This document shows positions 43,908 through 60,874 of a stretch of DNA of 64,000 bases, in pieces. The notes under the pieces were generated by a model. The model saw nothing but the letters and a program-made list of their open reading frames with translations, did not search any database and was not told where the DNA came from. This DNA comes from Nitrospirota bacterium. Lineage in GTDB: Bacteria > Nitrospirota > Thermodesulfovibrionia > Thermodesulfovibrionales > UBA9159. Each line of letters opens with the position of its first letter. Position 1 is the stretch's first letter. The position numbers and the translations under genes were made by a program. The stretch covers positions 4,951 to 68,950 of the forward strand of contig JAMCWJ010000076.1 in NCBI GenBank assembly GCA_023475105.1, written 5' to 3'.

Positions 43908-44420
43908 TCAGTTCCTCAACCTTTTCTTCGCAAGGACGATCGCCCCTATGATCGCCACGAGCAATATCATCGATACTACCTCGAAAGGGTACAGATACTC
44001 CGTAAAGAGGATCTGCCCCAGCACCTTTGTATTCGTCTCCGCCCTGACCACCTCGGTCGTGAAGACGCCCGAAGGTCCGGGGATGAAAGACTTCAGGGAA
44101 AGGACTATCACGACCAGCAGGCCCAGGGCAGCGAGGACCCCAAGAGGCCAGGGTCCGATGTATCTCCTCGCCACCATTTCCTCTTTCAGGTTCAGCAGCA
44201 GGACCACGAAGAGGAAGAGGACGAGAATGGCGCCCGCATAGACGATGACCTGGATCGCAGCAAGAAATTCCGCGTTTAGTGTTACGTACAGTGCAGCGAT
44301 GTGGAAGAAGAGCACGAGCATCGTGATCATGCTGTGCACAGGATTGCTCCGTGTTATCACCAGCACGGAGAGGATGACGATCGCCGCGGCAAGATAGATG
44401 AAGATTCCCTCAGCCATCAT
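43908..44420 (-). CDS. nuoJ: NADH-quinone oxidoreductase subunit J
   Basis: 170-aa membrane protein between nuoI and nuoK with a NuoJ-like N-terminal pattern. Confidence 0.85.
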
Positions 44421-45974: not shown

Positions 45975-46098
45975 TTCTCCCTCACCTCCGCGCGGCCGTT
46001 TCCGGCCATGGGTAAATCTCGTACCGACCTATCCGCCACTAATAAAACAAAATCAGGGCGCTCTTTGTCAATCCGGCCCCTGTCCGCCGCAGCCCGCT

Positions 46099-46593
46099 CT
46101 ACTTCCTCTTCCTGAACATGAGGTGCATGAGATCGATATACTGGCTGTTCATGTTCCTCACTATGGATGCGAGATGAACGGCGAGTCTCCTCAGTATCTT
46201 GCCAGCGATCAGGGGGTGCGTTCTCAGAAGGTCGTCGAAGTCCCGCTTCGCAAGGACGGTCAGGCGCGTCTGCTGGTCGGAGACGATCGTCGCGTCGTGT
46301 GCGCTTCCGTCAAGGAACGACATAATGCCGAAGATATCTCCCTCCTTCAGTGTCGCGATACAGAACTGGTCGCCTTCAACCATCATCTTGTTGATCTTCA
46401 CTTTCCCCTTGTCGATAATGCTGAGGCTGTCACCCTTTTCACCCTCACGGTATATCATCTCGTTCGGCCCGTAATCCCCGGACTGCAACAACCCCGCCAC
46501 GACACTCATTTCCGAGCCGTCAAGCTCCTCGAAAATGTAAGTCTTTTTATTCACCCGTACGACCTCGCTCCTTACGGCATTCGCCTGTATCAA
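46099..46593 (-). CDS. stand-alone cyclic-nucleotide-binding-domain protein with a degenerate phosphate-binding cassette
   Basis: CAP_ED-like pattern (IYREGEKGDSLSIIDKGKVKI … GDIFGIMSFLDGSAHDATIVS … RDFDDLL). It is inserted between nuoD and nuoH on the same strand. The start (TTG 46593 or GTG 46554) is uncertain. Confidence 0.7.
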   Translation of the reverse strand: MIQANAVRSEVVRVNKKTYIFEELDGSEMSVVAGLLQSGDYGPNEMIYREGEKGDSLSIIDKGKVKINKMMVEGDQFCIATLKEGDIFGIMSFLDGSAHDATIVSDQQTRLTVLAKRDFDDLLRTHPLIAGKILRRLAVHLASIVRNMNSQYIDLMHLMFRKRK

Positions 46594-46647
46594 GTCAACG
46601 GTGCGGGAGACAACAAGGAGTTCTACGCGGCCCTGATTGCCTGTCCA

Positions 46648-47844
46648 CTATCTATCACATTCGCCGAGCACGATATCGACAGTCCCGATATTTGCGATCA
46701 CGTCCGCCACGAGGGAGCCCTCGCAGAGCCTCGGTATCACCGAGGCATGCACGAACGACGGAGCCCGCACCCGCATCCGGTACGGTCGGCCGGTCCCATC
46801 GCTCACGAAGTAAAAGCCGAGTTCGCCCTTGGGCGCTTCGATAGCGGAGTAGATCTCCCCTTCAGGAGCAGCAATAGGCCCCTTCGTGATCAGGATGAAG
46901 TGATGGATCATCGATTCCATGCTCTTCAGCACATTGTCCTTCGGCGGAAGAGTGAGCTTCGGCGCATCGGGCGCCATGATCGGTCCCCGCGGAAGCTTCT
47001 CGATACATTGCCGTATGATCCTGTTCGACTGCCTGAACTCCTCCATCCTGCAACGGTATCTGTCGTACACGTCTCCGGTCTTGCCGACGGGCACGTCGAA
47101 CTCCACGTTACCGTATGCATCGTACGGGGCGTATTTTCTTACGTCATAGGCCACCCCCGAACCGCGCAGAGTCGGCCCCGAGAGCCCCCAGTTCACCGCC
47201 TCGTCCGCTTCGATCACTCCGATGCCCTTCGTCCTCTTGAGCCATATCCGGTTCTGGTCGATCAGGGTCTCATATTCCTCCACCCTCTTCGGGAATTCGT
47301 CGGTGAATTTATAGAGGCTGTCCAGAAACTCCTGGGAGACGTCATTCCTAACCCCGCCCGCCCGCGCATAGCTTGTGGTGAGCCTTGCGCCGCAGAGCAT
47401 CTCGAAGAGATCGAGGATCCATTCCCTCTCCCTGAAAGCATAGAGAAACACCGTCATCGCTCCGATATCGAGCGCATGGGTTCCGAGCCACAGGATATGG
47501 CTGCTTATCCTCGACATTTCGGCAACCATGGTGCGGATATACTGCGCCCTTTCAGGGGCCTCGATGCCGAAGAGCCGTTCGACCGCCAGACAATAGCCCT
47601 GATTGTTCGCCATGGCGGCGATGTAATCGAACCTGTCGGTAAGGGGAAGGGCGGTCAGATAGGTCCGGTTCTCCGCGAGCTTTTCGACGCCTCGATGGAG
47701 ATATCCTATATAAGGAGTACACTTGACGACCGTTTCGCCGTCGAGATCGAGGACAAGCCTCAACACCCCGTGCGTAGCGGGATGCTGGGGACCCATGTTT
47801 ATGGTCAATTCCCTGGTCTGTAATTCCGCCTTTCCTCTGTCCAT
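46648..47844 (-). CDS. nuoD: NADH-quinone oxidoreductase subunit D
   Basis: [15 protein letters not shown] and a C-terminal …DIVLGECDR are canonical for NuoD. Confidence 0.95.
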
Positions 47845-47845
47845 A

Positions 47846-48403
47846 TCAGTCCAGTCCGTATGCCTTGTTCTTTTCGGAAAGTTCCAGGGTTTCAGTGAAT
47901 CCCTTCCATTCTTTCTCGCCGAGGTCGCTCTTCAGCGGATAGTCCCTCCTGAGCGGATGCCCCTCCCAGTCCTCAGGCATCAGTATCCTTCTGAGGTCCG
48001 GATGCCCCCTGAACTCTATCCCGAACATGTCGTAACATTCCCTCTCGTGCCAGTTTGCGCCGTCCCATATGCTCACCACGCTGTCGATGACGGGATCCTC
48101 CTCGGGGACCTCCGCCCGTATCCTCAGCATATGCCTGTGACTGACGGAATAGAGCTGGTACACGACCTCGAATCTCGGAGTTTTTCTGCCGAGATAGTCG
48201 ACGCCGCACAGGTCCCTCAGGTAGCTGAAGCAGAGTTCGGAAGTGTCGTGAAGGTATTCCATGATCTCCTTCACTCTGTCTTTTCTCAGCAGAACCGACA
48301 CCTGTCCCCGAAATTCCCGTATCTCTTTCACTTCTTCCGGATAACGCTCTTTCAGTCCTTCGGCGATCGCCTGTGCGATGAGTTTCGCTTCCGTCTGATC
48401 CAT
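47846..48403 (-). CDS. nuoC: NADH-quinone oxidoreductase subunit C
   Basis: The 30-kDa subunit pattern …[26 protein letters not shown]…. Confidence 0.9.
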
Positions 48404-48404
48404 C

Positions 48405-48926
48405 TTATCTCCACCTGCTCCATCTGTAATGTTCCGCCTTTATCTTTTCCTGCAGCTTGATAATCCCTTCCATCAGCGCTTCGGGTCTCGGGGGGCATCC
48501 GGGTATGTAAACGTCGACAGGGAGAAAGGTGTCGACGCCTTGCACCGTACTGTAGGTGTTGTAAATCCCTCCCGAGCATGCGCAGCTTCCCATTGCCATG
48601 ACATACCGGGGCTCGGGCATCTGGTCGTACACCCTCCGTATGATAGGCACCATCTTCTTCGTGACCGTACCCGCGATGATCACCACGTCCGACTGCCGCG
48701 GCGAGCCCCTGAAGATTATCCCGAATCTGTCGAGGTCATAGTGGGCCGACCCCGTGGTCATCATCTCTATCGCGCAGCAGGCGAGCCCGAAGGCCATCGG
48801 CCAGAGAGAGGAAGCCCTTCCCCAGTTCACCACCTTATCGAGGGTCGTGACAATGGCGTTTCCTCCGGGAAGAACCTTCACTCCCTCTTCGACTTCAACA
48901 AGTCCCGTCGCGCCTTCTATGATCAT
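48405..48926 (-). CDS. nuoB: NADH-quinone oxidoreductase subunit B
   Basis: N2-cluster ligands in …[10 protein letters not shown]…, …GSCACSGG… and …IPGCPP…. Confidence 0.95.
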
Positions 48927-48971
48927 ACGGTCATCATCTTTCCGCGGTCGCGATCGGCATTTCCCCGTTTT

Positions 48972-49343
48972 TCAGTCCCATCTGAAGGCCTCTTTCTTCC
49001 ACGCGTAGACATATCCGACCACGAGCACCGCAATGAACAGGAGCATCTCGACAAGGGCAAAGAGGCCTATCTTATCGAACACGATGGCCCATGGATAGAG
49101 AAAAACCGCTTCAACGTCGAATATCACGAAGAGCATGGCGATAATGTAAAACTTTACGGAGAATCTGTATCTCGGCTCTCCGACGGGGGGATTACCCGAT
49201 TCATAGGGGACGAGCTTCTCGCGATAGGGCCTTTTCGGTCTGAAGATGATGCCTGCCGCCAAGGTGCCGAGACCAAAGGCGATAACAATCATCATGAAGA
49301 TGACTATCGGCAAATATTCTTCTGGCAAGAATGCGCTTGGCAT
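48972..49343 (-). CDS. nuoA: NADH-quinone oxidoreductase subunit A
   Basis: 123-aa three-TM protein with …YESGNPPVG…FDVEAVFLYPW…. Confidence 0.9.
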   Translation of the reverse strand: MPSAFLPEEYLPIVIFMMIVIAFGLGTLAAGIIFRPKRPYREKLVPYESGNPPVGEPRYRFSVKFYIIAMLFVIFDVEAVFLYPWAIVFDKIGLFALVEMLLFIAVLVVGYVYAWKKEAFRWD

Positions 49344-49383: not shown

Positions 49384-49446
49384 GTGGTAAATTTAGGCCG
49401 CCTGAAACGGCGGTGTTTTTCCGCGGTTTTTGTGATAAAATTGTGA

Positions 49447-51054
49447 ATGATTCGTAAATCCCTGAACTCCCTTGCCGGCAAGCTCATCATCGCAGTGGGG
49501 ACCTTGATGACCCTCGGCAGCATCATTTTCGGCTTCACCTTCATCCGCTATGAAGAAAAGATCATGATGAACAACCTGGTGAGTTACGCCTCTTCGACCG
49601 CGGACCTCGTCAAGAAAGGCGTCTCCTACGACATGCTATCCGGTCATCGCGAGGCGATAGCACAGACGATCGAAATCGTCGGTTCCGGCTCCGAGATCAG
49701 GGACATCGCGCTGTTCGACAAGCGGGGGAAGATCGTCTTCTCCTCGAAGAAATCCGAAGTGGGCAGGACCGTCGGAAAAGATTCTTCGACCTGCAGGATC
49801 TGCCATAAAGGAGACGGGAAACCCCTCATTGCGATCCCCGAATCGAAACACTGGGCCATTGTGACATCCCCCTCGGGAGTGAAGGTGATGAAACTCGTCA
49901 TGCCGATCTATAACGAGACTGCCTGCTTCTCGGCGTCCTGCCATTATCATCCGAAGGAAAAGAGGATCCTCGGGATTCTCGAAACGAACTTCAGCACCGC
50001 GACCGTAGACACGGCGATCAAACAGAACCGCATCGGCACCTTCCTCTTCGGCGGGCTGTTCATCATCATGATTTCTTTCTGTCTCTGCATCATCCTTTAT
50101 AAGTTCGTCTCGCGGCCGGTTTCCCTCCTCGATGAAGGCATGCACAAGCTCGCCCGCGGGCAACTCGACCATGTCATAGAGATCCATTCGAAGGACGAGA
50201 TGGGGCTCCTCGCTAATACCTTCAACACCATGGCCGGCGACATAAAAAGGTACCAGGACAATATGGAGAACTGGACAAAAGCCCTGGAGGAGGAGATCCA
50301 GAAGAAGACCTCGGAGATCATGAAGGCCCATGATCAGCTCATCAACGCAGAGAAGCTCGCGTCCCTCGGCAGGATGGCGGCGGGCGTCGCGCACGAACTG
50401 AACAGCCCCCTGACGGGGATCGTCACGTTTGCCCATCTCATGCTGAAAAGGATGCCGCCCGAGAACAGGCAGGACATCGAGGATCTCGAGGTGATTATCG
50501 AACAGGCGGAGAGGTGTTCAAAAATCGTCAAGGGGCTCCTCGGCTTTTCGCGGAAGACGAGCGCCGAGAAGGCCTTCGTAAACATCAATACCCTGACGGA
50601 AAACACGATAGCCATGGTGAGGAACCAGGCGAAGTTCCACAACATAAAATTCAACCTGAAATTCGACGACTCCGTCCCCGAGATACCGACCGATCCGAAC
50701 CAGCTGCAGCAGGTCTTCATCAACCTCTTCATTAATGCTGCGGATGCGATGAACGAAAGGGGCCAGGTCACCGTCGCGACGAGGCTGATATCCGATACCA
50801 CCGCCGGCAGGAAGTTTGTGGAGATAGAATTCAGCGACACGGGGCCGGGAATCCCCGAGGAGTTGCTCGGCCGGGTCTTCGAACCCTTCTTCACTACCAA
50901 GCCGGTCGGCAAGGGCACCGGCCTGGGCCTTGCGGTGAGCTACGGGATCATCAAGAAGCACGGGGGAAACATTTTTGTGAGAAGCGAAATCGGCAAGGGC
51001 GCGAGCTTTTTTGTGAGGCTCCCCATAGAGGATAATGCCGCAGCGGACTCTTAG
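49447..51054 (+). CDS. HAMP-domain sensor histidine kinase with a periplasmic domain carrying heme-c-type motifs
   Basis: Two TM segments flank a loop of about 165 aa containing CRICH (CxxCH) and CFSASCH (Cx4CH). HAMP, the H-box AAGVAHELNSPL, and the N/G1/G2 boxes of HATPase_c follow. Confidence 0.85.
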   Translation: MIRKSLNSLAGKLIIAVGTLMTLGSIIFGFTFIRYEEKIMMNNLVSYASSTADLVKKGVSYDMLSGHREAIAQTIEIVGSGSEIRDIALFDKRGKIVFSSKKSEVGRTVGKDSSTCRICHKGDGKPLIAIPESKHWAIVTSPSGVKVMKLVMPIYNETACFSASCHYHPKEKRILGILETNFSTATVDTAIKQNRIGTFLFGGLFIIMISFCLCIILYKFVSRPVSLLDEGMHKLARGQLDHVIEIHSKDEMGLLANTFNTMAGDIKRYQDNMENWTKALEEEIQKKTSEIMKAHDQLINAEKLASLGRMAAGVAHELNSPLTGIVTFAHLMLKRMPPENRQDIEDLEVIIEQAERCSKIVKGLLGFSRKTSAEKAFVNINTLTENTIAMVRNQAKFHNIKFNLKFDDSVPEIPTDPNQLQQVFINLFINAADAMNERGQVTVATRLISDTTAGRKFVEIEFSDTGPGIPEELLGRVFEPFFTTKPVGKGTGLGLAVSYGIIKKHGGNIFVRSEIGKGASFFVRLPIEDNAAADS

Positions 51055-51106
51055 CGGATCGAAAGGGAAATAGCGGACTACGGTGCGTGATGAGGAAGGA
51101 GAAAGC

Positions 51107-51466
51107 ATGACCCTCGGGAGAGTAATCGAGATACTGGAAGCAGAGGTGGTCGTTGATGCGATCGACAGAGAAATGGAAATCCGCTCGATATGCAGTTCCG
51201 ATCTCATGAGCGACCTTCTTCACTTTTCGAGCAGACCGAAGTCCATACTCATCACGGGCCTCAACAACACACAGGCGATCAGGACGGCCGAAATTGCGGA
51301 CATAAAGGGGATCGTCTTCGTGCTCGACAAGAGGCCGGACAAGGAAACGGTCCGCATGGCGCGGGAGAAGGGCATCCCCCTGATGGTGACGAGACTGTCG
51401 AGGTTCACCGCCTGCGGCAGGCTCTATGCAGCGGGGCTCGGCAGCTGCACCGGGGAGGACCGGTGA
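51107..51466 (+). CDS. DRTGG domain protein
   Basis: The ATG at 51107 follows GGAAGGAG. The pattern …SDLMSDLL…ILITGLNNTQAIRTA…GIPL… is DRTGG-like. Confidence 0.65.
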   Translation: MTLGRVIEILEAEVVVDAIDREMEIRSICSSDLMSDLLHFSSRPKSILITGLNNTQAIRTAEIADIKGIVFVLDKRPDKETVRMAREKGIPLMVTRLSRFTACGRLYAAGLGSCTGEDR

Positions 51467-51906
51467 CCAGAAGGAACATCGAGGGAAGCTTCCATCTCAG
51501 CGGAGGGGATTTTACCAATGCGGGCGCGGCATCGAGTGAATTGAAATCAATCCTGACAAACCTCGGTATCAACCCGGAAATCGTCCGGCGGGCGGCCATC
51601 GCCACCTTCGAGGCGGAGATGAACGTGATCATCCACGCCGTCGCGGGAGTGATGTACTACCTCATCACCCAGGACACCATCAAGGTTGTCCTGAACGACA
51701 TGGGTCCCGGCATCCCCGACATCGACCGGGCGATGACGGAAGGCTATTCTACTGCGCCTGATTGGATACGGGAGATGGGCTGGGGCGCGGGAATGGGGCT
51801 GCCGAACATGAAGAAGAACTCCGATAGATTCAAACTAGACTCGGTTGTCGGAGAGGGGACAACGGTAGAGATCATCATACGGATCAAGGAGGGCAAAACA
51901 GAATGA
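51463..51906 (+). CDS. HATPase_c-only protein (RsbW/anti-sigma-factor-kinase-like)
   Basis: GTG at 51463 (GTGA overlap with the upstream stop) is preceded by GGGGAGGA. Boxes are EAEMNVIIHA (N), NDMGPGIPD (G1) and GAGMGLPN (G2). Confidence 0.7.
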   Translation: MTRRNIEGSFHLSGGDFTNAGAASSELKSILTNLGINPEIVRRAAIATFEAEMNVIIHAVAGVMYYLITQDTIKVVLNDMGPGIPDIDRAMTEGYSTAPDWIREMGWGAGMGLPNMKKNSDRFKLDSVVGEGTTVEIIIRIKEGKTE

Positions 51907-52238
51907 ACGTGCAAGAGATTGTCGACGCCTTGTCTCTGGAAGTGAAAACTGCAAAGGGAGACCTCAGCCGTACGGTTACCGGGTGCTATATCAGCGACCT
52001 GCTCTCCGACGTGATGGCGAACGCCAAAGAGGGCGAGATATGGATCACCCTCCAGACCCATCCGAACGTCGTGGCCGTGGCCTCCCTCAAGAACCTCGGA
52101 GGCATTATCGTGACAAACAGACGTAGCCCGGAAGCGGAGACGCTCCAGAAAGCCGAGAACGAAGGCGTCGTTATCGCGGTAAGCCCCCTCTCGACATTCG
52201 AGGTGGGAGGCATGCTTTACAAGATGCTGCGATGCTGA
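51903..52238 (+). CDS. DRTGG domain protein (paralogue of 51107..51466)
   Basis: ATGA overlap with the upstream stop. …SDLLSDVM…WITLQTHPNVVAVA…GVVI… follows the same pattern as the first DRTGG gene. Confidence 0.65.
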   Translation: MNVQEIVDALSLEVKTAKGDLSRTVTGCYISDLLSDVMANAKEGEIWITLQTHPNVVAVASLKNLGGIIVTNRRSPEAETLQKAENEGVVIAVSPLSTFEVGGMLYKMLRC

Positions 52239-52975
52239 AACCGTACCATGCCGACCTCCATATGCATACCTGCCTTTCTCCGTGCGCAGAAATCGATATG
52301 ACCCCGCGCGAAATAGTCGCAGCTGCCCTCAGGAGAGGGCTGCATCTCATCGCTGTTACAGACCACAACTCGGCCGAAAATGCGGAGGCAACGAGAAGAG
52401 CCGCCGAAGGGACGGGGCTTGTGGTCTTCGCGGGCATGGAAGTCACTTCGTCCGAGGAAGTGCATATCCTCGCGCTCTTCGAGTCACCTGACGGGGCCGG
52501 GGCGCTCCAGGACGTGGTGCACAGAAACCTTCCCGCCGGCGAGAACGATGAGAGGCTGTACGGGCACCAGATAATCGTGAACAAGGACAATGAAGTGATG
52601 GGCTTCGACAGGCGGCTGCTTATCGCGGCCACCGGACTCAATGCCCGTGCCCTTGTCGACCTGATCCGGTCGCTTGAGGGTGTCTCGATCGCAAGTCATG
52701 TCGACCGAGAGGCCTTCAGCGTTCTCTCACAGCTGGGATTCATCCCTGAAGACCTCAGATTCGACGCCGTCGAGCTTTCGCCGAAAGTGGGAAGGCAAGC
52801 GGCGGAACGGCTCTTCGGTGGTCTGAAGAGATTTCCCTGGGTCTCCTTTTCGGACGCCCACTACATCAGGGACATCGGCAAGAGAGTCACCACCTTCATG
52901 CTGGAGGAGGCGACCTTCGGAGAGATGAAGGCCGCGCTTGCCTCCGCAGGCGGCAGGGACATCTTCTGGGAGTGA
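52232..52975 (+). CDS. PHP-domain phosphoesterase
   Basis: HADLHMHTCLSPCA, VTDHNS and the GMEV… metal-ligand pattern of the PHP fold. It overlaps the upstream gene by 7 nt. Confidence 0.75.
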   Translation: MLKPYHADLHMHTCLSPCAEIDMTPREIVAAALRRGLHLIAVTDHNSAENAEATRRAAEGTGLVVFAGMEVTSSEEVHILALFESPDGAGALQDVVHRNLPAGENDERLYGHQIIVNKDNEVMGFDRRLLIAATGLNARALVDLIRSLEGVSIASHVDREAFSVLSQLGFIPEDLRFDAVELSPKVGRQAAERLFGGLKRFPWVSFSDAHYIRDIGKRVTTFMLEEATFGEMKAALASAGGRDIFWE

Positions 52976-52979
52976 CTCC

Positions 52980-53525
52980 ATGGAAGACCTTTCCCTGCAT
53001 ATCCTCGACATCGTCGAGAACTCCGTCGCAGCCGGAGCGACGACCGTGGAGATCACGGTCGAGGAAGATACGGGAAAGGATCTGCTCGGCCTGGAGATAA
53101 AAGACAACGGCAAGGGCATCGATAATGATATGATAGAGGCAGTTACCGACCCTTTCTTCACGACGAAAACAGTGAGGAGGGTGGGACTTGGCCTGCCGCT
53201 GCTGAAACAGGCGGCAGAGGGATGCGAGGGCACCTTCTCTCTCAGGTCGGACAAGGGAAAGGGCACGACGGTGTCAGTCGGCCTCAGACGCAGTCATATC
53301 GACAGAAAGCCGCTGGGTGACATGGCGGCTACGATGATAGTGCTGATAGCCGGCAATCCCGAAACTGACTTTGTCTTCTCGTACAGGAAGGATGAACTCA
53401 GTTACCGGCTGGATACCCGGGAAATCAGGGAAGAGCTGGCAGGGATACCGATCACTTCTCCCGAAGTGCTGAGGATAATACGGGAGGACATGGAGAGAGG
53501 GCTGAGCAAAGAGGCGGCAGGATGA
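52980..53525 (+). CDS. HATPase_c-only ATP-binding protein
   Basis: Start ATG at 52980. Boxes are LDIVENSVAAGA (N), KDNGKGI (G1) and VGLGLPL (G2). There is no HisKA/H-box. Confidence 0.7.
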   Translation: MEDLSLHILDIVENSVAAGATTVEITVEEDTGKDLLGLEIKDNGKGIDNDMIEAVTDPFFTTKTVRRVGLGLPLLKQAAEGCEGTFSLRSDKGKGTTVSVGLRRSHIDRKPLGDMAATMIVLIAGNPETDFVFSYRKDELSYRLDTREIREELAGIPITSPEVLRIIREDMERGLSKEAAG

Positions 53526-53911
53526 GCAAACCCCGGATACTGGTGATCGACGACGAAGAGATTGTGAGAATAAGTTGCAGGAAATGCCTCGCCCCCGAAG
53601 GATATGAAGTGGATCTTGCAGGGAGCGGCGCAGAGGGTATGCGCGTTCTGGCGGAAACCCCGTATGATCTTGTCCTGACCGACCTCAAGATGCCCGATAT
53701 GGACGGCATGGAATTCTTGATGAAGATAAAGGAGGCCAGGCCAGGCACAAAGGTGATCATGATAACCGGATACAGCACCGTGGAACATGCCGAAGAGGCG
53801 ATGCTGCTGGGTGCATGCAATTATGTAGAAAAACCCTTCACCCCCGATACTCTTATCAGGGCGGTAAGGGAAGCATTAGGGGAAGCTGGAAAGCGAAGGG
53901 ACGACGCCTAG
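53522..53911 (+). CDS. stand-alone response-regulator receiver (CheY-like)
   Basis: VIDDE, LVLTDLKMPDMDG, MITGY and EKPF show all phospho-acceptor pocket residues are present. There is no output domain. ATGA overlap with the upstream stop. Confidence 0.9.
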   Translation: MSKPRILVIDDEEIVRISCRKCLAPEGYEVDLAGSGAEGMRVLAETPYDLVLTDLKMPDMDGMEFLMKIKEARPGTKVIMITGYSTVEHAEEAMLLGACNYVEKPFTPDTLIRAVREALGEAGKRRDDA

Positions 53912-54029
53912 CGAACGCCGGAGAGTAGCGTTGTGCCGCAACTCTCACCGCCCTCCGTCCGTGAAGAATGCTTGATAAAGGAGAGTTTATTTATTTATTA
54001 TAATAGCAAGTTGCAAGGAGGGAAATTCA

Positions 54030-54893
54030 ATGGCGGGCAGAATACTTGTGGTAGATGACGAACCTGTCGTTGTCAAGAGCTGTGAGCGCATCCTGACTCC
54101 CGCAGGTTATACCGTGGACGGCGCCTCGAACGGCAACGAGGCCATCGGCAAGCTTGGCAAGGACGGCTATGACCTTGTGGTGACGGATCTCAGGATGCCT
54201 GACATCGACGGCCTTGAACTCATCCGGTGGATCAGAAACTCGAAGCCGGAAACGGGCGTTGTGGTGATTACGGGCTACCCGTCGCAGGAGAGCATACGGG
54301 AAGCCCTCGGCCTCCGGATTCTGGATTACCTGCCGAAACCTTTTTCCCCGGCCCTCCTTACCGAAATCGTCCAGCGCGCCATGGAATACAAGAAGGCGGG
54401 CAAGGTCACTGAGACCCCTCCTTCCGAGGAATACACCGAGGAGATGGCGAAAGAACTCGACGGAATCATCAGGAAATACAGAAAGAAGCCCGGGAGTCTG
54501 ATTCCCGTCCTCCAGGAAGCGCAGGAACTGATCGGCTACCTCCCCCCCTCCGTGCAGAGACACATCGCAAGAGGCTTGAAGGTGCCGGTAAGCGAAGTGC
54601 ACGGCGTGGTGTCGTTCTACTCCTTCTTCACGATGAAACCGAAGGGAAAGCACAACATACGCGTTTGTCTCGGCACGGCCTGCTACGTGAAGGGCGCTGA
54701 AGAGATCGTGAAAAAACTGAGCGAAGGCCTTGCGATCAGCGTCGGCGGCATCACTGAGGACAAGAACTTTTCTCTTGAAACCGTGCGGTGTCTCGGAGCA
54801 TGCGGACTCGCACCTGTTGTCGTAATAGACAAAGACACCCATGGTTCCATCAATGCCGTGAAGGTCCACGAACTCTTGAAAGATTACGAATAG
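54030..54893 (+). CDS. receiver domain fused to a NuoE/HydC-type 2Fe-2S subunit
   Basis: Residues 1-118 form an intact REC domain (VVDDE, VVTDLRMPDIDG, VITGY, PKPF). Residues ~135-287 are NuoE-like, with the 2Fe-2S ligands in CLGTAC and CLGACGLAP. Confidence 0.85.
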   Translation: MAGRILVVDDEPVVVKSCERILTPAGYTVDGASNGNEAIGKLGKDGYDLVVTDLRMPDIDGLELIRWIRNSKPETGVVVITGYPSQESIREALGLRILDYLPKPFSPALLTEIVQRAMEYKKAGKVTETPPSEEYTEEMAKELDGIIRKYRKKPGSLIPVLQEAQELIGYLPPSVQRHIARGLKVPVSEVHGVVSFYSFFTMKPKGKHNIRVCLGTACYVKGAEEIVKKLSEGLAISVGGITEDKNFSLETVRCLGACGLAPVVVIDKDTHGSINAVKVHELLKDYE

Positions 54894-54902
54894 GAGGCGG
54901 AT

Positions 54903-55286
54903 ATGGCCAGGCTGACGATAGAGGATCTGAAAAAAATAAAGGAAGATTACAAGGCGATGCTCACTCTGAGAGAGGGCGGATACAGGGCGAAGATCACCGT
55001 TCATATGGGCACTTGCGGCATTGCCGCGGGCGCGAGAAAAGTGATGGAGGCGCTTCTCGACGAGATAAACACGAGCAATGTAAAAGACGTGATCGTCACC
55101 ACGTCGGGATGCGCCGGGCTCTGCAGCAAGGAGCCGATGGCTACCGTCGAAATGATCAACGAAGCCCCCGTGAAATACGTCCAACTCAACGATGAGAAGA
55201 TACGAAAAATTTTCAAGGAACACGTCCTGAACGGCCGGATCGTCCAGGATTCCGCCCTTGTCATGGGAAGTGAAACGGCATACTGA
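54903..55286 (+). CDS. thioredoxin-like 2Fe-2S ferredoxin (HydD-like small subunit)
   Basis: The HMGTCGIAAGA … SGCAGLCSKEP pattern. AGGAGG lies upstream. Confidence 0.75.
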   Translation: MARLTIEDLKKIKEDYKAMLTLREGGYRAKITVHMGTCGIAAGARKVMEALLDEINTSNVKDVIVTTSGCAGLCSKEPMATVEMINEAPVKYVQLNDEKIRKIFKEHVLNGRIVQDSALVMGSETAY

Positions 55287-55290
55287 GAAT

Positions 55291-55325
55291 AGCATAGGTC
55301 AAATATGACTTATATGACCTATGCT
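55291..55325 (+). other. perfect 11-bp intercistronic stem-loop
   Basis: AGCATAGGTCA (55291..55301) pairs with TGACCTATGCT (55315..55325) around a 13-nt AT-rich loop. It sits between the 2Fe-2S gene stop and the SD of the NuoF-like gene. Confidence 0.6.
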
Positions 55326-55339
55326 TCTTTGGAGGAGGA

Positions 55340-57223
55340 ATGGAAAAGTACCGCGCAAGTGTAATGCTGTGTGGAGGCACCGGTTGCATCGCAGGCGGCA
55401 GTTTGAAGGTCAAGAACGCTCTCGATGCGGAGCTTAAGAATAGAGGTCTCGAAAATGAAATAAACGTCGTTCTCACCGGCTGCAACGGCTTCTGTGCCGA
55501 AGGCCCTGTCATGACCGTCTACCCCGAAGACATTTTTTATGAAAAAGTTACGCTCAACGATGTGCCCCTGATCGTGGAAGAGCACTTTATCAAGGGAAGG
55601 CCGGTGGAGAAACTCATGTACAAGGAGCCGCTGAAGAAGCAGCCCATCCCGCTGATGAAGGAAATCCCCTTCTTCAGCCTCCAGGTGCTCAGGGCGCTGA
55701 GGAACAAGGGGCTCGTCGATGCCGAAAAGATCGAAGAATATATCGCGAGGGACGGATATCAGGCTGCGGCAAAGGCGTTGACGGAGATGACCCCGGCACA
55801 GATAATCGACGAACTGAAGAGGTCGGGGCTCCGGGGAAGAGGGGGCGCGGGCTTCCCCACGGGCATGAAATGGGAACTCTGCGCGCGGGTGCAGGGAGAC
55901 CAGAAGTTCATCCTCTGCAACGGTGACGAAGGGGACCCCGGCGCCTTCATGGACCGGAGTGTCATGGAGGCGGACCCCCATGTGGTCCTTGAGGGAATGA
56001 TAATCGGCGCAAAGGCGATCGGGGCGGACAAGGGGTATATCTATGTGAGGGCGGAATATCCTCTGGCAGTGCACCGTCTGCAACTTGCAATAAACCAGGC
56101 GAAAGAGAACGGACTTCTGGGGAATAATATCCTGGGCACGGGCTTTAACCTCGACATCGAGATATATCTGGGGGCGGGCGCCTTTGTCTGCGGTGAAGAG
56201 ACAGCGCTCATGCGTTCCATCGAAGGGAAACGGGGAATGCCAAGGCCGAGACCTCCCTTCCCCGCCCAGAAAGGACTGTGGGACAAGCCTTCGGTGCTCA
56301 ACAACGTCGAGACCTACGCGAACATTCCCCAGATAATCCTGAACGGCTCCGACTGGTACAGAAGCCTCGGGACGGAAAAATCGACAGGCACAAAGGTCTT
56401 CGCCCTGAGCGGTGCGATAAGCAACATAGGACTTATAGAGGTGCCGATGGGAATTCCCCTCAGGAAGATCATTTATGACATCGGCGGCGGGGTACCCAAG
56501 GGAAGAAAATTCAAGGCCGTTCAGCTCGGCGGGCCTTCCGGAGGGTGTATCCCGGAGCATCTTCTCGATACCCCGGTCACCTATGAAGACATCGTACAGA
56601 CGGGGGCCATCGTCGGTTCGGGCGGTATGGTCGTCATGAACGACCTGAACTGCATGGTGAGCGTCGCAAAATTCTTCCTCGAATTCACCGCGGAGGAATC
56701 CTGCGGCAAATGCCCTCCTTGCAGGATCGGCACCACGGTGATGCTTGATCTCCTGACGAAGATCACCGAGGGGAACGGGAAAGACGGGGACATAGAGCTC
56801 CTCGGCGATATGGCTCTCGACATCATCGCCACCTCCCTGTGCGGACTGGGGCAGACCGCCCCGAACCCCGTGCTGACGACGATAAAATACTTCAAGCAGG
56901 AGTATGAATCACACATCTATGAGAAATGGTGCAAGACCGGTGTCTGCAAAGACCTCTGCACGTTCTATATCGACGAAGAAAAGTGCAAGGCCTGCGGTGT
57001 ATGCAAAAGGGTCTGCCCCCAGAAAGCGGTTACCGGGGAAAAGAAGGTGCCCCACCACATCGATCAGTCTCTCTGCATCCAGTGCCGCTCCTGCTATGAG
57101 GCGTGCAAGTTCGACTCGGTGAAGATAGGCCCGCGGAGCATGAGGGATGAGCTGCTGAACCTCCCCGACCAAGAGGCGCTGAAAAACAAGCAGTTAGAGG
57201 CACTCGCGGGAAAGGGGGAATAG
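55340..57223 (+). CDS. NuoF-like NADH-binding flavoprotein with HydB/HndC-type extra domains
   Basis: N-terminal thioredoxin-like 2Fe-2S domain, FMN/NADH motifs GRGGAGFPTG and GDEGDPGAF, the N3 cluster ESCGKCPPCR, and two C-terminal 4Fe-4S motifs (CKACGVCKRVCP, CIQCRSCYEAC). Confidence 0.9.
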   Translation: MEKYRASVMLCGGTGCIAGGSLKVKNALDAELKNRGLENEINVVLTGCNGFCAEGPVMTVYPEDIFYEKVTLNDVPLIVEEHFIKGRPVEKLMYKEPLKKQPIPLMKEIPFFSLQVLRALRNKGLVDAEKIEEYIARDGYQAAAKALTEMTPAQIIDELKRSGLRGRGGAGFPTGMKWELCARVQGDQKFILCNGDEGDPGAFMDRSVMEADPHVVLEGMIIGAKAIGADKGYIYVRAEYPLAVHRLQLAINQAKENGLLGNNILGTGFNLDIEIYLGAGAFVCGEETALMRSIEGKRGMPRPRPPFPAQKGLWDKPSVLNNVETYANIPQIILNGSDWYRSLGTEKSTGTKVFALSGAISNIGLIEVPMGIPLRKIIYDIGGGVPKGRKFKAVQLGGPSGGCIPEHLLDTPVTYEDIVQTGAIVGSGGMVVMNDLNCMVSVAKFFLEFTAEESCGKCPPCRIGTTVMLDLLTKITEGNGKDGDIELLGDMALDIIATSLCGLGQTAPNPVLTTIKYFKQEYESHIYEKWCKTGVCKDLCTFYIDEEKCKACGVCKRVCPQKAVTGEKKVPHHIDQSLCIQCRSCYEACKFDSVKIGPRSMRDELLNLPDQEALKNKQLEALAGKGE

Positions 57224-57227
57224 GGAA

Positions 57228-59702
57228 ATGATAGAACTCAAGATAAACGGAAAAAACATACAGGTCGAGCAGGGCGCGACCCTGCTTCAGGCTGCGCTCG
57301 CAAACGGCATTTATATTCCGAACCTCTGCTACGACAAGAGACTCAGACCGTACGGCGGCTGCAGGCTCTGCATTGTAGAGCTGGAGGGACAGAAAAGGCT
57401 TTTTGCCGCCTGCTCCACCCCGGCGGAGAACGGAATGGCGGTCCGGACCGAGACCCCGAGACTTCATAAGGCGAGGAAGACGGTACTCGAGTTCCTGCTG
57501 ATCCATCATCCCCTGGATTGTCCGGTCTGCGACAAGGCAGGAGAATGCAAGCTCCAGGACCTCGCGTTCAAATACGGCCCGTCCGAGTCGAGGTTTGTCG
57601 GGGAAAGGAAGCACGAACCCGAGAGGATTGCCGCTCCGCTCGTCGAGAGAAACCCCAACAGGTGCATCCTGTGCGGAAAGTGCGTGAGGGTGTGCTATGA
57701 CCATCAGGGAGTCGGCGCGATCAGCCTGCTCGGCAGAGGGTTCAAATCGAAGATCAGCCCCGCCTTTGAGGAGACCCTCGATTGCGAGTTCTGCGGTCAG
57801 TGTATCGATGCCTGTCCCGTCGGCGCCCTCGGCAGCAAGCCTTACCGCTTCCGGTCAAGGGTCTGGTTCATGGACGAAAAGCCGATCACCTGTCCCTACT
57901 GCGGCTGCGGATGCACTACAAACCTGAGCCTCAGGGATGGAAGGATCATACGCGCCAGGGGAAGACAGGGTGTCGGGACGAACGACGGCGACCTTTGCAG
58001 CAGGGGAAGGTTCGGGTTCGACTATATCTACTCGGAAAACCGACTCACGACGCCCCTCGTCAGGAAAGAAGGGAAGCTCGTCGAGGCATCATGGGAAGAG
58101 GCCCTCGAGTTCGTCGGCAAGAGACTCGAAGAGATAAAGGAGATGAGCGGTCCTTCGGCGATCGGTGCGATCGGTTCCCAGAGATGCACGATGGAAGATA
58201 ATTACCTGTTGCAGCGCTTCATGCGGGAGGTCATCGGGACGGACAATGTCGACTCTGCTGCGCGCTTCGGTTACGCAAAGGCACAGAAGACCTTCGAAAA
58301 AGCCTTCGGTCTCGACCTCCAACCGATACAGTGGGACGCGCCTCTGAAAGCCGATTTCATCCTCGTGGTGGAGTCGGACATCACCTCGGCCGTGCCCGTA
58401 TGGGGACTGAACTTCATCAGCGCCAGAAACAACGGGGCGCAGCTTGTCGTCGCGGATGCGAAGGAGACGAAACTTGCGCGTAACAGTACTTCGTGGCTCC
58501 AGATAAAGCCCGGATCAGGGGTCGCCCTTCTTAACGGGATTGCAAAAGTGATCCTCGATGAGAAGCTGTACGACCTCGATGAGGAAGTCCCCATGGAAGA
58601 CAAGAACCTCACCATCCCGAATTATGAGGCCATGGTGAGGGGGCTCGCCGAGTTTACCCCGGCTGCGGTTTCACAGCTCACCGGTCTTTCCGAAAACGAG
58701 ATTGTTCACCTCGCACGGTCTTACGCTGCCGCAAAGAGCAGACTCCTGTCTCTCACCTCGAGCGCCTCGGAGAACACAAAAGGCCTGAATACGCTCCTGG
58801 CGGCCGCAAATCTGGCGATCCTCATGGGTGACGGGCCCGACACGCTGCAGATACCCGCGGAGTTCTCGAATACGCTCGGCATGTGGGAAGTCGGGGTGAG
58901 GCCGCTTTCCGGGGGAAAAGACGCGTACGAAATGCTGTATAAACCCGGGACGATGAAGGCCCTCTATATGATGGGCGAGAACCCTCTGGTCACGTGCAAG
59001 GACGTTTCGGTGGTCGAAAAGACCCTAAGAGGCCTCGAACTGTTTATCGTGCAGGACATCATCCTTACTGACACCGCAAAACTTGCGGACGTGGTGCTGC
59101 CCGCCAGCAGTTGGGGAGAAAAGGAAGGCATCTTTATGTCTGCCACGGGGGACATTCATGAGATCCCCAAGCTTCTCACTGAAACCGGCCAGTCGATCCC
59201 CGACTGGAAGATCTTCAGGAATCTTGCGAGGGCGATGAACAAGGACCTCGGGGTGACAGATCTGGCAGAGATCAGGGGCGCGATCATGGACCTGATCGCC
59301 GCGGCGCCTGCCGGCGAAGAGGTCAGGAGTTTCACCCCCGTGGAATTCAAGGTCTCCGAGAGGCCCGACGAAGAGTATCCGATGCTTCTGGTCACGGCGA
59401 ATCTCCTGCAGCACTCGGGTGCCCTGTCGATACTTTCGAAAAACCTGGGCTCTGTGGTCTCGGATGCGTATCTGCAGATCAATCCCGGGGATGCAAAAAA
59501 ATACAAGATTCACGACGAAGGATATGTGAAGGTGACATCGAGAAGGGGAGAGGTGTATCTGAAGGCGATGGTCAGCGAAGAAATGCCGGAGGGCGCGGTG
59601 TTTGCCCCGACGCATTTCCCCCATGCCAACGTCAATGCCCTGACCCATCCTCCGCTGAACGGTGAGGCACCGACGGACGCGATCAAGATCCAGCTCGCTT
59701 GA
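57228..59702 (+). CDS. NuoG-like Fe-S / molybdopterin-fold subunit lacking the catalytic Cys/Sec
   Basis: 2Fe-2S (CYDKRLRPYGGCRLC), HxxxCxxCxxxxxC (HHPLDCPVCDKAGEC), 4Fe-4S motifs and CPYCGCGC, then a molybdopterin-oxidoreductase fold. The position equivalent to the FDH Cys/Sec-His reads NVDSAARFGYAKAQ. Confidence 0.85.
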   Translation: MIELKINGKNIQVEQGATLLQAALANGIYIPNLCYDKRLRPYGGCRLCIVELEGQKRLFAACSTPAENGMAVRTETPRLHKARKTVLEFLLIHHPLDCPVCDKAGECKLQDLAFKYGPSESRFVGERKHEPERIAAPLVERNPNRCILCGKCVRVCYDHQGVGAISLLGRGFKSKISPAFEETLDCEFCGQCIDACPVGALGSKPYRFRSRVWFMDEKPITCPYCGCGCTTNLSLRDGRIIRARGRQGVGTNDGDLCSRGRFGFDYIYSENRLTTPLVRKEGKLVEASWEEALEFVGKRLEEIKEMSGPSAIGAIGSQRCTMEDNYLLQRFMREVIGTDNVDSAARFGYAKAQKTFEKAFGLDLQPIQWDAPLKADFILVVESDITSAVPVWGLNFISARNNGAQLVVADAKETKLARNSTSWLQIKPGSGVALLNGIAKVILDEKLYDLDEEVPMEDKNLTIPNYEAMVRGLAEFTPAAVSQLTGLSENEIVHLARSYAAAKSRLLSLTSSASENTKGLNTLLAAANLAILMGDGPDTLQIPAEFSNTLGMWEVGVRPLSGGKDAYEMLYKPGTMKALYMMGENPLVTCKDVSVVEKTLRGLELFIVQDIILTDTAKLADVVLPASSWGEKEGIFMSATGDIHEIPKLLTETGQSIPDWKIFRNLARAMNKDLGVTDLAEIRGAIMDLIAAAPAGEEVRSFTPVEFKVSERPDEEYPMLLVTANLLQHSGALSILSKNLGSVVSDAYLQINPGDAKKYKIHDEGYVKVTSRRGEVYLKAMVSEEMPEGAVFAPTHFPHANVNALTHPPLNGEAPTDAIKIQLA

Positions 59703-59726: not shown

Positions 59727-59993
59727 TTGATTCCGTACAAGGACGATAACCCTGCTGGCGTTTTCCCTGTCGTTACGGTCGCGATAGTTTTTCCGAACGC
59801 CGTCCTGTCCCCCGTATCCGCCTTGATTGTTATAGGATTTTGGGCTATTATACAGCCGGTCGGTGCTCTGATTACCCAGGCGCTGCCGGGCAGGGATAGT
59901 GTCGCGTGGTTCGCCCATGTTGGCGGGTTTCTTTTTGGTCTCATCACCGTCAAATTGTGGCTGCCGAAAAGGAGGGTTCCCCAGTGGTCATAA
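59727..59993 (+). pseudogene. rhomboid-family protease remnant (internal deletion removes the catalytic Ser region)
   Basis: The 88-aa ORF has a rhomboid-like N-terminus (MIPYKDDNP…FPVVTVAIV) joined directly to the last TM region with the catalytic His (VAWFAHVGGFLFG). The GxSG helix and about 130 aa are absent. Confidence 0.5.
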
Positions 59994-60874
59994 TTTGCCC
60001 GAAATGCAAAGTGAAACTGAAAGTGGCTGATGAAAAAATAGCCCCCGAGGGTACGCGCTTCAAGTGCCCCAGGTGCAGCACTGTTCTGCTGGTGAAAAGG
60101 CCGACGCCGAAGATGAAACCCCTCGATCTTGCCACGGTTCTTGTGGCCCACGAAAAGCCTTCGGTGATGGAGAGGATAAAGTCCGTGCTCTCGACGCAGG
60201 GATACCGGATTATCGCTGTTTCGGACGGTATCACGGCGATGGTGAATGCGACAAAAGAATTGCCCTTTCTCTCTCTCCTGAGCGTCTCCCTCCCGAAGAT
60301 TTACGGATTCGAGATATGCAGAAGGCTGAAAAGCAGGCCGGAAACGAAGGGCATGAAGGTGATCCTGATTGCCTCCATCTACGACGAGAAAAGATACCGC
60401 AGGGAACCGGAATCCCTTCACGACGCTGACGATTATCTGGAAGAGCATCAGATAGAAGAAATGCTCGGCCAAAAAATCAACCTCCTGAGAGGGACCCCTG
60501 AAACTGCCCGCCCGTCTGCTCCCGCGCCGGGAACGGAAGGGCCCCGCGGGCAGGCGCCGCAGCCGGAAGACAAGGCGAGGGCAGAAGAGAGGCCCCGTCC
60601 CTCGCTGCCTGAAGTGAAACCCTCGGAAGCCCCTGAGGTGGAAAAGGCGCGGCGGCTCGTGAGAATCATACTGTCCGACATCTATCTTTACAGCAAGGCG
60701 AAAGTCGATGATTCGATCAGGAACGGCACGTTCCATAAGACTTTTTCCTCTGAATTGAGGGAAGGACTCAAGCTGTACGAGAATAGGATTTCGGCCGATA
60801 TAAGAAGCCGGGGTGACTTCTATAACGAAGCAGTCAATAATTTCATAGAGAAAAGAAAAAAAGAAATAGCTTAG
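59984..60874 (+). CDS. zinc-ribbon / pseudo-receiver / Pro-rich linker / conserved C-terminal domain protein
   Basis: GTG at 59984 follows AAAAGGAGGG. MJ0042-type CPKC…CPRC ribbon. The REC-like fold has Ser at the phospho-acceptor position (LSLLSVSLPKIYGFE). A P/E/A-rich linker and a C-terminal domain ARRLVRIILSDIYLYSKAKVDDSIRNGTF follow. Confidence 0.6.
   Translation: MVIICPKCKVKLKVADEKIAPEGTRFKCPRCSTVLLVKRPTPKMKPLDLATVLVAHEKPSVMERIKSVLSTQGYRIIAVSDGITAMVNATKELPFLSLLSVSLPKIYGFEICRRLKSRPETKGMKVILIASIYDEKRYRREPESLHDADDYLEEHQIEEMLGQKINLLRGTPETARPSAPAPGTEGPRGQAPQPEDKARAEERPRPSLPEVKPSEAPEVEKARRLVRIILSDIYLYSKAKVDDSIRNGTFHKTFSSELREGLKLYENRISADIRSRGDFYNEAVNNFIEKRKKEIA

Follow-up and report, generated by a model that had tools for sequence, protein, structure and literature searches.

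The closest described counterpart of the locus analysed here is Nuo-Bfu, a form of complex I in which BfuABC was predicted to replace NuoEFG (Schut et al. 2022, PMC9304861). Its BfuB subunits fall in clades 38 and 39, clade 39 being the one that includes Planctomycetes and Nitrospirae (PMC9304861), and Nuo-Bfu is a prediction that has never been purified. Here we describe a related gene cluster in a 64,000-nt stretch of a Nitrospirota bacterium (GCA_023475105.1, contig JAMCWJ010000076.1, positions 4,951-68,950, forward strand; the whole stretch is called the window), whose source organism was placed in the Thermodesulfovibrionales (Nitrospirota) by database matches. The cluster comprises eleven plus-strand genes (49447-59702), which encode a membrane histidine kinase, a five-gene cassette of two DRTGG proteins, two GHKL-type proteins and a PHP-family phosphoesterase, a stand-alone receiver, and a predicted Bfu/HydABC-type redox module whose NuoE subunit carries a second receiver (REC::NuoE). 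It had been noticed in a sequence-only reading, in which the eleven genes were located and given domains that Pfam upheld throughout. That reading could match the cluster to no described system. This is no more than half right, since a Bfu-headed complex I had already been predicted (PMC9304861).

With Nuo-Bfu the window shares an extended NuoF, a NuoE, a NuoG-like subunit without a catalytic site, the genes nuoA-D/H-N, and the phylum. The published class, however, sits in the middle of a 14-gene operon, whereas the module of the window forms a separate, divergent unit, with a receiver on NuoE, a HydD-like ferredoxin, and the kinase and cassette placed before it. Neither the cassette nor the kinase was named in the main text of PMC9304861 when it was searched for histidine kinase, response regulator, PHP and kinase.

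Accessory genes of the same kind have been seen next to hydrogenases. In HydABC and NiFe-HydABCSL operons (PMC8880783) and in Halanaerobium (PMC4237134), a PHP protein and a small 2Fe-2S protein are encoded beside NuoE and NuoF homologues, together with a HATPase-only protein named 'histidine kinase' and an 'anti-sigma factor serine kinase'. For the hydrogenase operon of Halanaerobium hydrogeniformans these genes are listed without comment (PMC4237134), and the NiFe-HydABCSL of A. mobile was purified without HisK and HydD, its operon also having HydP (Feng et al. 2022, PMC8880783). Both papers bear out the statement of the sequence-only reading that HATPase, DRTGG and PHP genes stand beside HydABC operons with no assigned role. 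HydABC-type operons differ from the window in their hydrogenase partner and, usually, a HydS-like sensor, in place of which the window, which has no hydrogenase, encodes a kinase and receivers. The putative H2-sensing [FeFe] hydrogenases of groups C/D (HydS), which have a Ser/Thr kinase and a phosphatase encoded alongside, are alike in another respect, the idea that a bifurcating enzyme is controlled through phosphorylation by a sensor beside it (R. albus in PMC5707799; T. maritima in PMC10055695). The hfs and R. albus systems differ, for they have a PAS domain with a serine phosphatase (hfsC) where the cassette has DRTGG, PHP and a MutL-like ATPase. Equivalence with hfsABCD of Thermoanaerobacterium was considered and rejected, the hfs papers describing a PAS-containing hydrogenase and a serine phosphatase instead of this cassette.

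Already known, then, are the prediction of Nuo-Bfu and the unexplained presence of the same cassette beside HydABC-type operons. New here are the generality of the cassette and its modular sensors, its two submodules, the MutL-like nature of the protein called 'HisK', the kinase with haem motifs, the receiver-NuoE fusion, and the repeated linkage to Nuo in Nitrospirota.

The cassette accompanies Bfu modules in many phyla

Loci of relatives were collected with a profile of the PHP protein against one genome per species; the 80 best loci were kept (numbered with the prefix L), and their open reading frames (ORFs) were labelled by blastp with the proteins of the window. At E<1e-3 the PHP family comprised 3852 representative clusters, a number that fell to 454 at E<1e-30, and nearly all were of about 245 residues. 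Results showed that the five-gene cassette stands beside NuoE, ferredoxin and NuoF genes in about 80 genomes, which belong to many phyla, and chance juxtaposition, which the sequence-only reading had named as a way to fail, was not borne out. The cassette was found in Nitrospirota, Thermodesulfobacteriota (Syntrophales, Desulfobacterales), Acidobacteriota, Bacillota and Bacteroidota/Ignavibacteria, and further in Cloacimonadota, Spirochaetota, Aminicenantes, Zixibacteria and Fidelibacterota. Neighbouring genes were counted in the 42 loci that are flanked on each side by 6 kb or more. The second ATPase was present in 41 of these, DRTGG2, the SpoIIAB-like gene and DRTGG1 in 40 each, and the small ferredoxin in 36; NuoF lay on the same strand within 9 kb in 33/42, and several of the remaining loci carried it on the opposite strand. 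The full 11-gene order recurred in L005 and L088, with REC::NuoE 83-89% identical to that of the window.

The partners of the cassette vary and include NiFe hydrogenase, a selenocysteine (Sec) formate dehydrogenase with NuoF::GltD, Nuo and, probably, FeFe hydrogenase (a weak blastp match to the hydrogenase probe). These results indicate that the cassette goes with Bfu modules across many phyla irrespective of the partner enzyme, an association far more general than the sequence-only reading had stated. The Sec formate dehydrogenases were observed in two loci (alpha subunits at L030:15595-18402 and from L073:5363 onward, with an in-frame TGA in 'CARL-U-HS'), where they adjoin a 1018-aa NuoF::GltD-like fusion and a sensor-less cassette; the same NuoF::GltD layout was also seen in many genomes of Syntrophales and Smithella.

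Sensors were found in a fixed slot, either between the SpoIIAB-like gene and DRTGG2 or fused to the SpoIIAB-like gene. In about 30 loci the slot holds a HydS-like protein of 420-460 aa (Fer4 + Fe_hyd_lg_C + FeS; e.g. L071:8284-9645), and in 14 loci, including all those with the cassette inside a nuo operon except the partial L058, the SpoIIAB-like gene bears an N-terminal CBS pair. The slot is empty in many Syntrophales, and in Nitrospirota a membrane kinase and receivers flank the cassette; a sensory hydrogenase of HydS type is absent from the window. Since the sensor input is exchangeable between lineages, the cassette reads as a signal-processing device that acts on the module at the protein level. 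The searched literature (DRTGG/PHP with hydrogenase, NuoE/NuoF with anti-sigma, response regulator with NuoE) contained no paper assigning the cassette a function, and its sole match for DRTGG in a sulfate reducer concerned DVU3031 and lactate.

The five proteins fall into two submodules. Submodule A consists of stand-alone DRTGG protein 1 (51107-51466; Pfam DRTGG, E 5e-8) and a SpoIIAB/RsbW-like GHKL protein of serine-kinase type (51463-51906; HATPase_c_2, E 9e-7), and submodule B of stand-alone DRTGG protein 2 (51903-52238; DRTGG, E 2e-5, just below the gathering score), the PHP-family metal-dependent phosphoesterase (52232-52975; Pfam PHP) and a two-domain GHKL ATPase (52980-53525; HATPase_c and HATPase_c_3). 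The division rests on gene splitting, the submodules being separated in L060 and L084, and on fusions, as the two genes of submodule A are fused in L041 and L079 and a natural PHP::ATPase fusion occurs in P0272. In L006 a four-gene block on the opposite strand (6055-9785; an OmpR-type two-component pair, a hypothetical gene and DUF5666) lies between DRTGG2 and PHP, which suggests that the cassette tolerates being split between its two submodules.

The domains of the cassette proteins are intact. Both DRTGG proteins share the motif DL(M/L)SDV, as DLMSDV in at least 90% of 72 orthologues of protein 1 and as DLLSDV in 80 orthologues of protein 2; protein 1 also gave a weak PDB sequence match to AF_1212 (2ioj, E 0.013). 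The SpoIIAB-like protein, whose N, G1 and G2 boxes are kept in 76 orthologues, matched NCBIfam spIIAB with E 5e-14, under the family cut-off, and anti-sigma F factor was its top PDB match. In the PHP protein the metal ligands are complete (H10, H12, D44, H45, E70, H78, H156, D208 and H210, invariant in 41 diverse members). Its nearest solved relatives are EndoQ, the putative metal-dependent phosphoesterase 3e0f and the 5'-3' exoribonuclease 7ug9, and with these as nearest matches an assignment as a CpsB-type protein phosphatase found no sequence support. The second ATPase had been called HATPase-only: the HATPase domain is there, but the protein is not a bare kinase domain and is rather a two-domain ATPase resembling MutL and TopoVI-B. 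Its conserved residues include a MutL-like N box (ENSxxAGA), G1 and G2 boxes and, in the C-terminal alpha/beta domain, an invariant H106-I-D-x-x-P-x-G. The AlphaFold model (predicted local distance difference test, pLDDT, 86) matched MutL, PMS2 and TopoVI-B over its full length in Foldseek (E 3e-7; 170-200 columns, query TM-score, TMq, only 0.45-0.58), whereas only about 100 residues aligned with the ATP domains of histidine kinases.

Two known systems resemble parts of this set. By analogy, the cassette may recall SpoIIAB-SpoIIAA-SpoIIE and RsbW-RsbV-RsbU, where a small GHKL kinase likewise neighbours a small alpha/beta protein that has a conserved serine, and where the cluster includes a phosphoesterase; partner switching of the SpoIIAB type was rejected, as STAS, PP2C and sigma domains are lacking and DRTGG and PHP stand in their places. 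The regulatory CBS-DRTGG-CBS insert of CBS-pyrophosphatases binds AMP/ADP/ATP and Ap4A (PMC11172384; bioRxiv 10.1101/2020.04.07.028951). The 14 related loci with CBS on the SpoIIAB-like gene likewise combine DRTGG with CBS pairs, but the DRTGG proteins of the cassette are free-standing, the copy in the window has no CBS pair, and nucleotide binding by them is putative.

The redox module and its probable link to Nuo

The four genes downstream of the receiver encode, as judged from domain content, a Bfu/HydABC-type flavoprotein module linked to NADH and ferredoxin. REC::NuoE (54030-54893; Pfam Response_reg and 2Fe-2S_thioredx) joins a receiver to a 2Fe-2S subunit of NuoE/HydC/BfuC type. Residues D9, D10, D53, T81 and K103 of the receiver and the four cluster cysteines of NuoE were invariant in 36/36 homologues, and both domains were present in 120/120 best database matches; the AlphaFold model showed two domains and a disordered linker (predicted template-modelling score, pTM, 0.48). 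It is followed by a small thioredoxin-like 2Fe-2S protein of HydD/HndB type (54903-55286; weak Pfam 2Fe-2S_thioredx) and by a BfuB/HydB-type NuoF (55340-57223; Pfam N-terminal 2Fe-2S, Complex1_51K, NADH_4Fe-4S, two Fer4). NuoF is of the long type, with an N-terminal 2Fe-2S cluster, an FMN/NADH site, a 4Fe-4S cluster and a C-terminal 2x[4Fe-4S] domain, and SLBB was weak (E 3e-4). Its top PDB matches were HydB of bifurcating hydrogenases (7t2r_B, E 1e-247; 7q4v_B, 8e-245), and matches to HydB, StnB and NfnB (9n5u_B) ranged from E 1e-247 to 1e-208, against about 1e-110 for NuoF of complex I. The window thus has the domain set by which PMC9304861 operationally defines BfuB (FMN/NADH, SLBB, NuoF 4Fe-4S, C-terminal 4Fe-4S), and Pfam found both accompanying subunits, BfuC (NuoE-like, 2Fe-2S) and BfuA (NuoG/HydA-like, multi-cluster).

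The third subunit (57228-59702) is a NuoG-like or degenerate formate-dehydrogenase alpha protein (BfuA), with the Pfam order Fer2_4, NADH-G_4Fe-4S_3, Fer4_Nqo3, Molybdop_Fe4S4, Molybdopterin, Molydop_binding. Its closest sequence match was FdsA of an NAD-dependent formate dehydrogenase (6tg9, E 1e-120). FdsABG of R. capsulatus indeed has the same order of Fe-S domains and a diaphorase of NuoE/NuoF type, but its catalytic Cys386-His387 is Gly-Tyr in the window, where the active-site stretch 'CARVCH' aligned with 'AARFGY', and the window NuoF is longer and of Bfu type. In alignments the Cys/Sec-His pair is kept in the Sec formate dehydrogenases of L030 and L073 ('CARLUH', with TGA read-through) and absent both from the window group and from NuoG proteins encoded inside nuo operons. 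A formate dehydrogenase was accordingly ruled out, as the pair that these true Sec enzymes keep is missing. With NCBIfam, the subunit reached 449 bits against a cut-off of 470 for NuoG (TIGR01973) and 437 against 666 for Fdh-alpha, and two of the four inspected pterin-binding motifs were degenerate in the same way as in in-operon NuoG proteins. From the missing pair, the near-threshold NuoG score and these motifs, the third subunit seems to be an electron conduit that itself lacks a substrate site, as Nuo-Bfu would have it.

Opposite the cluster, on the minus strand, lies an 11-subunit nuo operon (A-D, H-N; 38645-49343), identified by Pfam, ORF reading and blastp to orthologous operons. It consists of nuoA (48972-49343), nuoB (48405-48926), nuoC (47846-48403), nuoD (46648-47844), a gene for a cyclic-nucleotide (cNMP)-binding protein (46099-46593), nuoH (44961-45974), nuoI (44410-44964), nuoJ (43908-44420), nuoK (43604-43906), nuoL (41676-43592), nuoM (40100-41662) and nuoN (38645-40078). 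The earlier descriptions of this operon as lacking exactly nuoEFG and of the kinase as starting about 100 nt from nuoA proved accurate, the measured distance to the nuoA end being 103 nt. A terminator-like element, a GC-rich hairpin with a T run behind it, lies in this spacer at 49397-49414 (+), 33 nt ahead of the start of the kinase gene; it may serve the divergent promoters as an attenuator or as a site where a protein binds.

The stand-alone cNMP-binding protein (164 aa) fills the nuoEFG slot between nuoD and nuoH, and the same insertion was seen in L005. In L043 (Desulfobacterales) a cNMP-binding domain is fused to a HydD-like small 2Fe-2S protein (249 aa), and L059 and L069 encode proteins of the same length that are probably the same fusion. 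A cNMP gene at the EFG slot and a cNMP::HydD fusion suggest that cNMP sensing is repeatedly tied to these modules.

Several arrangements join the cassette and module to nuo genes. One strand of L060, L070, L072 and L084 carries, with small gaps, nuoA-B-C-D, then the cassette, NuoE, the small ferredoxin, NuoF, the NuoG-like gene and nuoH, so that the module occupies the position predicted for Nuo-Bfu; L086 and L087 show the same order up to the contig end (through NuoG and to the small ferredoxin, respectively), and the partial loci L058 and L077 apparently do so too. In the window, by comparison, the module diverges from nuoA and the cNMP-binding gene sits at the EFG slot. L015 carries, on one strand, a window-type NuoG-like tail, the cassette and an EFG-less nuoA-N, its NuoD being 77% identical to that of the window. 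Overall, a cassette and module inside or upstream of a nuo operon were seen in other Nitrospirota and in Desulfomonilaceae. The divergence from nuoA recurs in L005 and L006, and in L008, L029 and L048 the kinase and cassette diverge from nuoA, with orthologous Nuo subunits (NuoD 77-81% identical in L008 and L048). In L008 and L048, both from Nitrospirota, the kinase, a receiver or NtrC-type regulator, and the cassette lie opposite a nuo operon with canonical nuoEFG (short nuoE and nuoF after nuoD, the start of nuoG at the locus edge) and no Bfu-type NuoF occurs within 10 kb, a layout that ties the cassette to Nuo even where a Bfu-type head is absent. In a rough neighbour-joining tree of NuoF, with no bootstrap and no direct comparison with the published clades 38/39, the window clade came out as sister to in-operon NuoFs of Nitrospirota.

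Taken together, the third subunit without a catalytic site makes docking onto the 11-subunit Nuo the most likely arrangement, and the relatives with cassette and module at the nuoEFG slot, or upstream in the same direction, point the same way. We consider it rather probable that the module is the electron-input head of the neighbouring Nuo.

Two-component input and transcriptional control

The first gene of the cluster (49447-51054) encodes a membrane histidine kinase (Pfam HAMP, HisKA and HATPase_c). Two hydropathy peaks (residues about 9-33 and 194-225), probably membrane-spanning, flank a domain of about 160 aa that is probably periplasmic. This domain carries C116xxCH and C160x4CH, and both motifs, which had gone unmentioned in the sequence-only reading, were kept in 9/9 full-length orthologues, down to 44% identity. 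CxxCH and Cx4CH are attachment motifs of c-type haem. We infer from the motifs that the domain binds haem c, and the kinase is a probable redox sensor.

The stand-alone CheY-like receiver (53522-53911; Response_reg, E 1e-31) overlaps the cassette ATPase gene by 4 nt (ATGA), and is a paralogue of the receiver of REC::NuoE (46% identity). The kinase has its H box and ATP-binding domain, and both receivers have the residues for phosphorylation, so that a pairing of kinase and receivers may be proposed. As the fused receiver keeps all phospho-acceptor residues in the 36 homologues, direct phospho-control of the module is plausible, and its fusion to the 2Fe-2S subunit points to that subunit as the target.

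The gene junctions were as the sequence-only reading had claimed, with successive gaps of +52, -4, -4, -7, +4, -4, +118, +9, +53 and +4 nt. Its description of the 118-nt gap as AT-rich applies to the 3' half (GC content 0.28) but not to the 5' half (0.63). A consensus scan of this gap gave a sigma-70-like promoter candidate on the plus strand (TTGATA-18-TATTAT, 53972-54001, 10/12 matches). Pfam agreed with the reading that none of the eleven cluster proteins has a DNA-binding, sigma or STAS domain, and no transcriptional output domain was found in these or in the ten largest flanking ORFs of the window.

Relatives differ from the window in this respect. NtrC-type regulators are encoded in the clusters of L090, L048, L029 and L010, and a REC-HTH_8 protein in L014; in L090 the NtrC-type activator and, immediately after it, a REC::GCV_H gene lie between the free receiver and REC::NuoE. 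Sigma-54-like sites, TGGCA(C/T)-N5-TTGCT with 0-1 mismatches, were found upstream of the module operon, 55-85 nt before REC::GCV_H (L090:9043-9058, L003:9139-9154, L002:9166-9181, L089:9108-9123), whereas no sigma-54 promoter was found near the cluster in the window. The claim that the system has only post-translational outputs therefore fails for the family, which as a whole uses both transcriptional and protein-level control. As the window has neither, its lineage appears to have kept only the protein-level outputs.

REC::GCV_H, a receiver fused to a glycine-cleavage-H-like domain of lipoyl/biotinyl type, was observed directly upstream of REC::NuoE in L003 (9224-9988), L006 (11381-12145), L089 (9164-9931) and L090 (9113-9883); the window has the bare receiver only. 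Another gene with a receiver-like domain lies at 59906-60874 (+) of the window and encodes a zinc ribbon and a degenerate receiver, with Ser at the acceptor position and no acidic pair. It is kept just downstream of the NuoG-like gene in L005, L088, L089 and L090, and occurs downstream of the cassette in L017 and L024. A rhomboid protease gene precedes it in L088, L089 and L090; L005 has only a weak 61-aa rhomboid fragment and the window has none. The groES/groEL genes come after it. The remaining genes of the window (Mur ligase, LptD, ClpB, FtsH, PurL, PurB and others) showed nothing related to the cluster.

Proposed control of the module and its alternatives

Our overall explanation, to which we give an even chance, is a Bfu-type head of Nuo with an accessory signalling cassette and a lineage-specific two-component input. 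The module would be a Nuo-Bfu-like head split off into a divergent transcription unit. The membrane kinase would report the redox state of the periplasm or of electron acceptors and phosphorylate the free receiver and the paralogous receiver on NuoE. The phosphorylated NuoE receiver may then change the dimerisation or oligomeric state, the activity or the docking of the head. The free receiver probably talks to the cassette, since it is translationally coupled to the cassette ATPase. The cassette would integrate further signals, with nucleotides acting on the DRTGG proteins, ATP turnover by the two GHKL proteins and the PHP phosphoesterase as the reset enzyme, and its own signal may be protein phosphorylation or a nucleotide. 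The second regulatory fusion on a small Bfu protein, the cNMP::HydD-like protein of L043 and probably of L059 and L069, supports direct control at the protein level.

Several observations weigh against this explanation. AlphaFold gave no confident contact between the receiver and NuoE in REC::NuoE. The PHP protein resembles phosphoesterases of nucleotides and nucleic acids, not known protein phosphatases, and the second ATPase looks more like a clamp of MutL type than like a kinase, so that a simple kinase/phosphatase cycle is conjectural; the NtrC-type regulators and sigma-54 promoters of relatives make transcription part of the family's logic. As to the link with Nuo, nuo genes are missing from the 10 kb around in L088, L090, L089 and L002-L004, although L088 has the same 11-gene order and a REC::NuoE 83% identical. 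In L002-L004 the NuoG-like gene is followed by a PAS/GAF gene and then by one for FdhD, a formate dehydrogenase sulfurtransferase, which hints at a sulfurated Mo/W cofactor even though the Cys/Sec ligand is lacking; FdhD could reflect a non-canonical Mo/W site or serve an unrelated formate dehydrogenase elsewhere in the genome. The NuoF of L034, which is of the window type, forms a fusion with a GltD-like NADPH domain, as would suit a soluble transhydrogenase-like enzyme, and the EFG-less Nuo of cultured Thermodesulfovibrio is usually read as ferredoxin-dependent and headless (PMC5165239). The module may accordingly be a soluble, self-contained Bfu enzyme with a non-canonical Mo/W-pterin site or some other partner, its adjacency to nuoA being an accident of the lineage. 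Such an enzyme would also agree with a MoaA-like radical-SAM gene upstream in L002-L004 and L089, with MoaC in L089 as well, and with what the third subunit retains, namely the Molydop_binding domain and, in the pterin region, the motifs GENP and VVQDI. We regard it as a serious but doubtful alternative, given the lost Cys/Sec-His pair and the two pterin motifs degenerate as in in-operon NuoG, the three independent architectures that join cassette and module to nuo in Nitrospirota, the sister position of the NuoF clade to in-operon NuoFs, and the adjoining nuo operon that lacks exactly these three subunits.

The role of the cassette can likewise be read differently. It might serve to mature, repair or assemble Bfu flavoproteins, for example with a nucleotide phosphoesterase and an ATPase clamp handling flavin or Fe-S cofactors, as the nearest relatives of PHP (EndoQ, 3e0f, a 5'-3' exoribonuclease), the MutL/TopoVI-B-like ATPase and the position inside structural operons with overlapping genes would allow; the paper on the A. 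mobile structure likewise leaves it at 'maturation and/or regulation' (PMC8880783). We consider this quite unlikely. It is signalling systems, not maturation factors, that typically have their sensors swapped, as happens here at one fixed position with a HydS-like protein, a CBS pair and a kinase with receivers, and the cassette contains a SpoIIAB-like kinase while REC and cNMP domains occur on small Bfu proteins. Moreover, in L010 and L048, whose flanks span 8 kb or more on each side, the cassette occurs with a kinase and regulators while the sequence available has no NuoF of the extended Bfu type, and the same apparently goes for the shorter L013, L014 and L029. The two-component system might instead act mainly on transcription through an NtrC-type regulator encoded elsewhere, with the receivers as phosphate sinks or modulators instead of switches of enzyme activity, for which the NtrC-type or REC-HTH_8 regulators of L090, L048, L029, L010 and L014 and the sigma-54-like sites before the module operon in L002, L003, L089 and L090 could be cited. 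This seems unlikely for the window, whose 64 kb contain neither a sigma-54 site nor an NtrC-type regulator, and the conserved residues of the fused receiver, together with the fusion in all 120 best matches, argue for a selected function on NuoE itself. The sigma-70-like promoter in the 118-nt gap suggests that the two halves of the cluster may be transcribed separately, as unrelated signalling and redox genes brought together by chance would be. Chance is nevertheless effectively refuted by the linkage of the cassette to NuoE, ferredoxin and NuoF genes in dozens of genomes and by the 11-gene order in L005 and L088.

Bfu/HydABC-type enzymes are central to the energy conservation of anaerobes, including fermenters, syntrophs, acetogens and sulfate reducers, and the five-gene cassette is a concrete candidate for their control system. 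The Nitrospirota version is the most informative one, as it has a conventional kinase as the sensor, a receiver on the 2Fe-2S subunit and a tie to a headless pump of complex I type. It provides a genomic test case for the hypothetical Nuo-Bfu respiratory complex and challenges the common view of the EFG-less Nuo of sulfate reducers as purely ferredoxin-driven. More tentatively, the cassette may be a universal, modular post-translational governor of Bfu enzymes with exchangeable sensors (HydS for H2, CBS for adenylates, a haem kinase for redox state), which in this lineage would use the NuoE receiver to gate the entry of NADH and ferredoxin electrons into a proton pump of complex I type. If true, this would be the first phosphorylation-gated electron input into complex I in bacteria.

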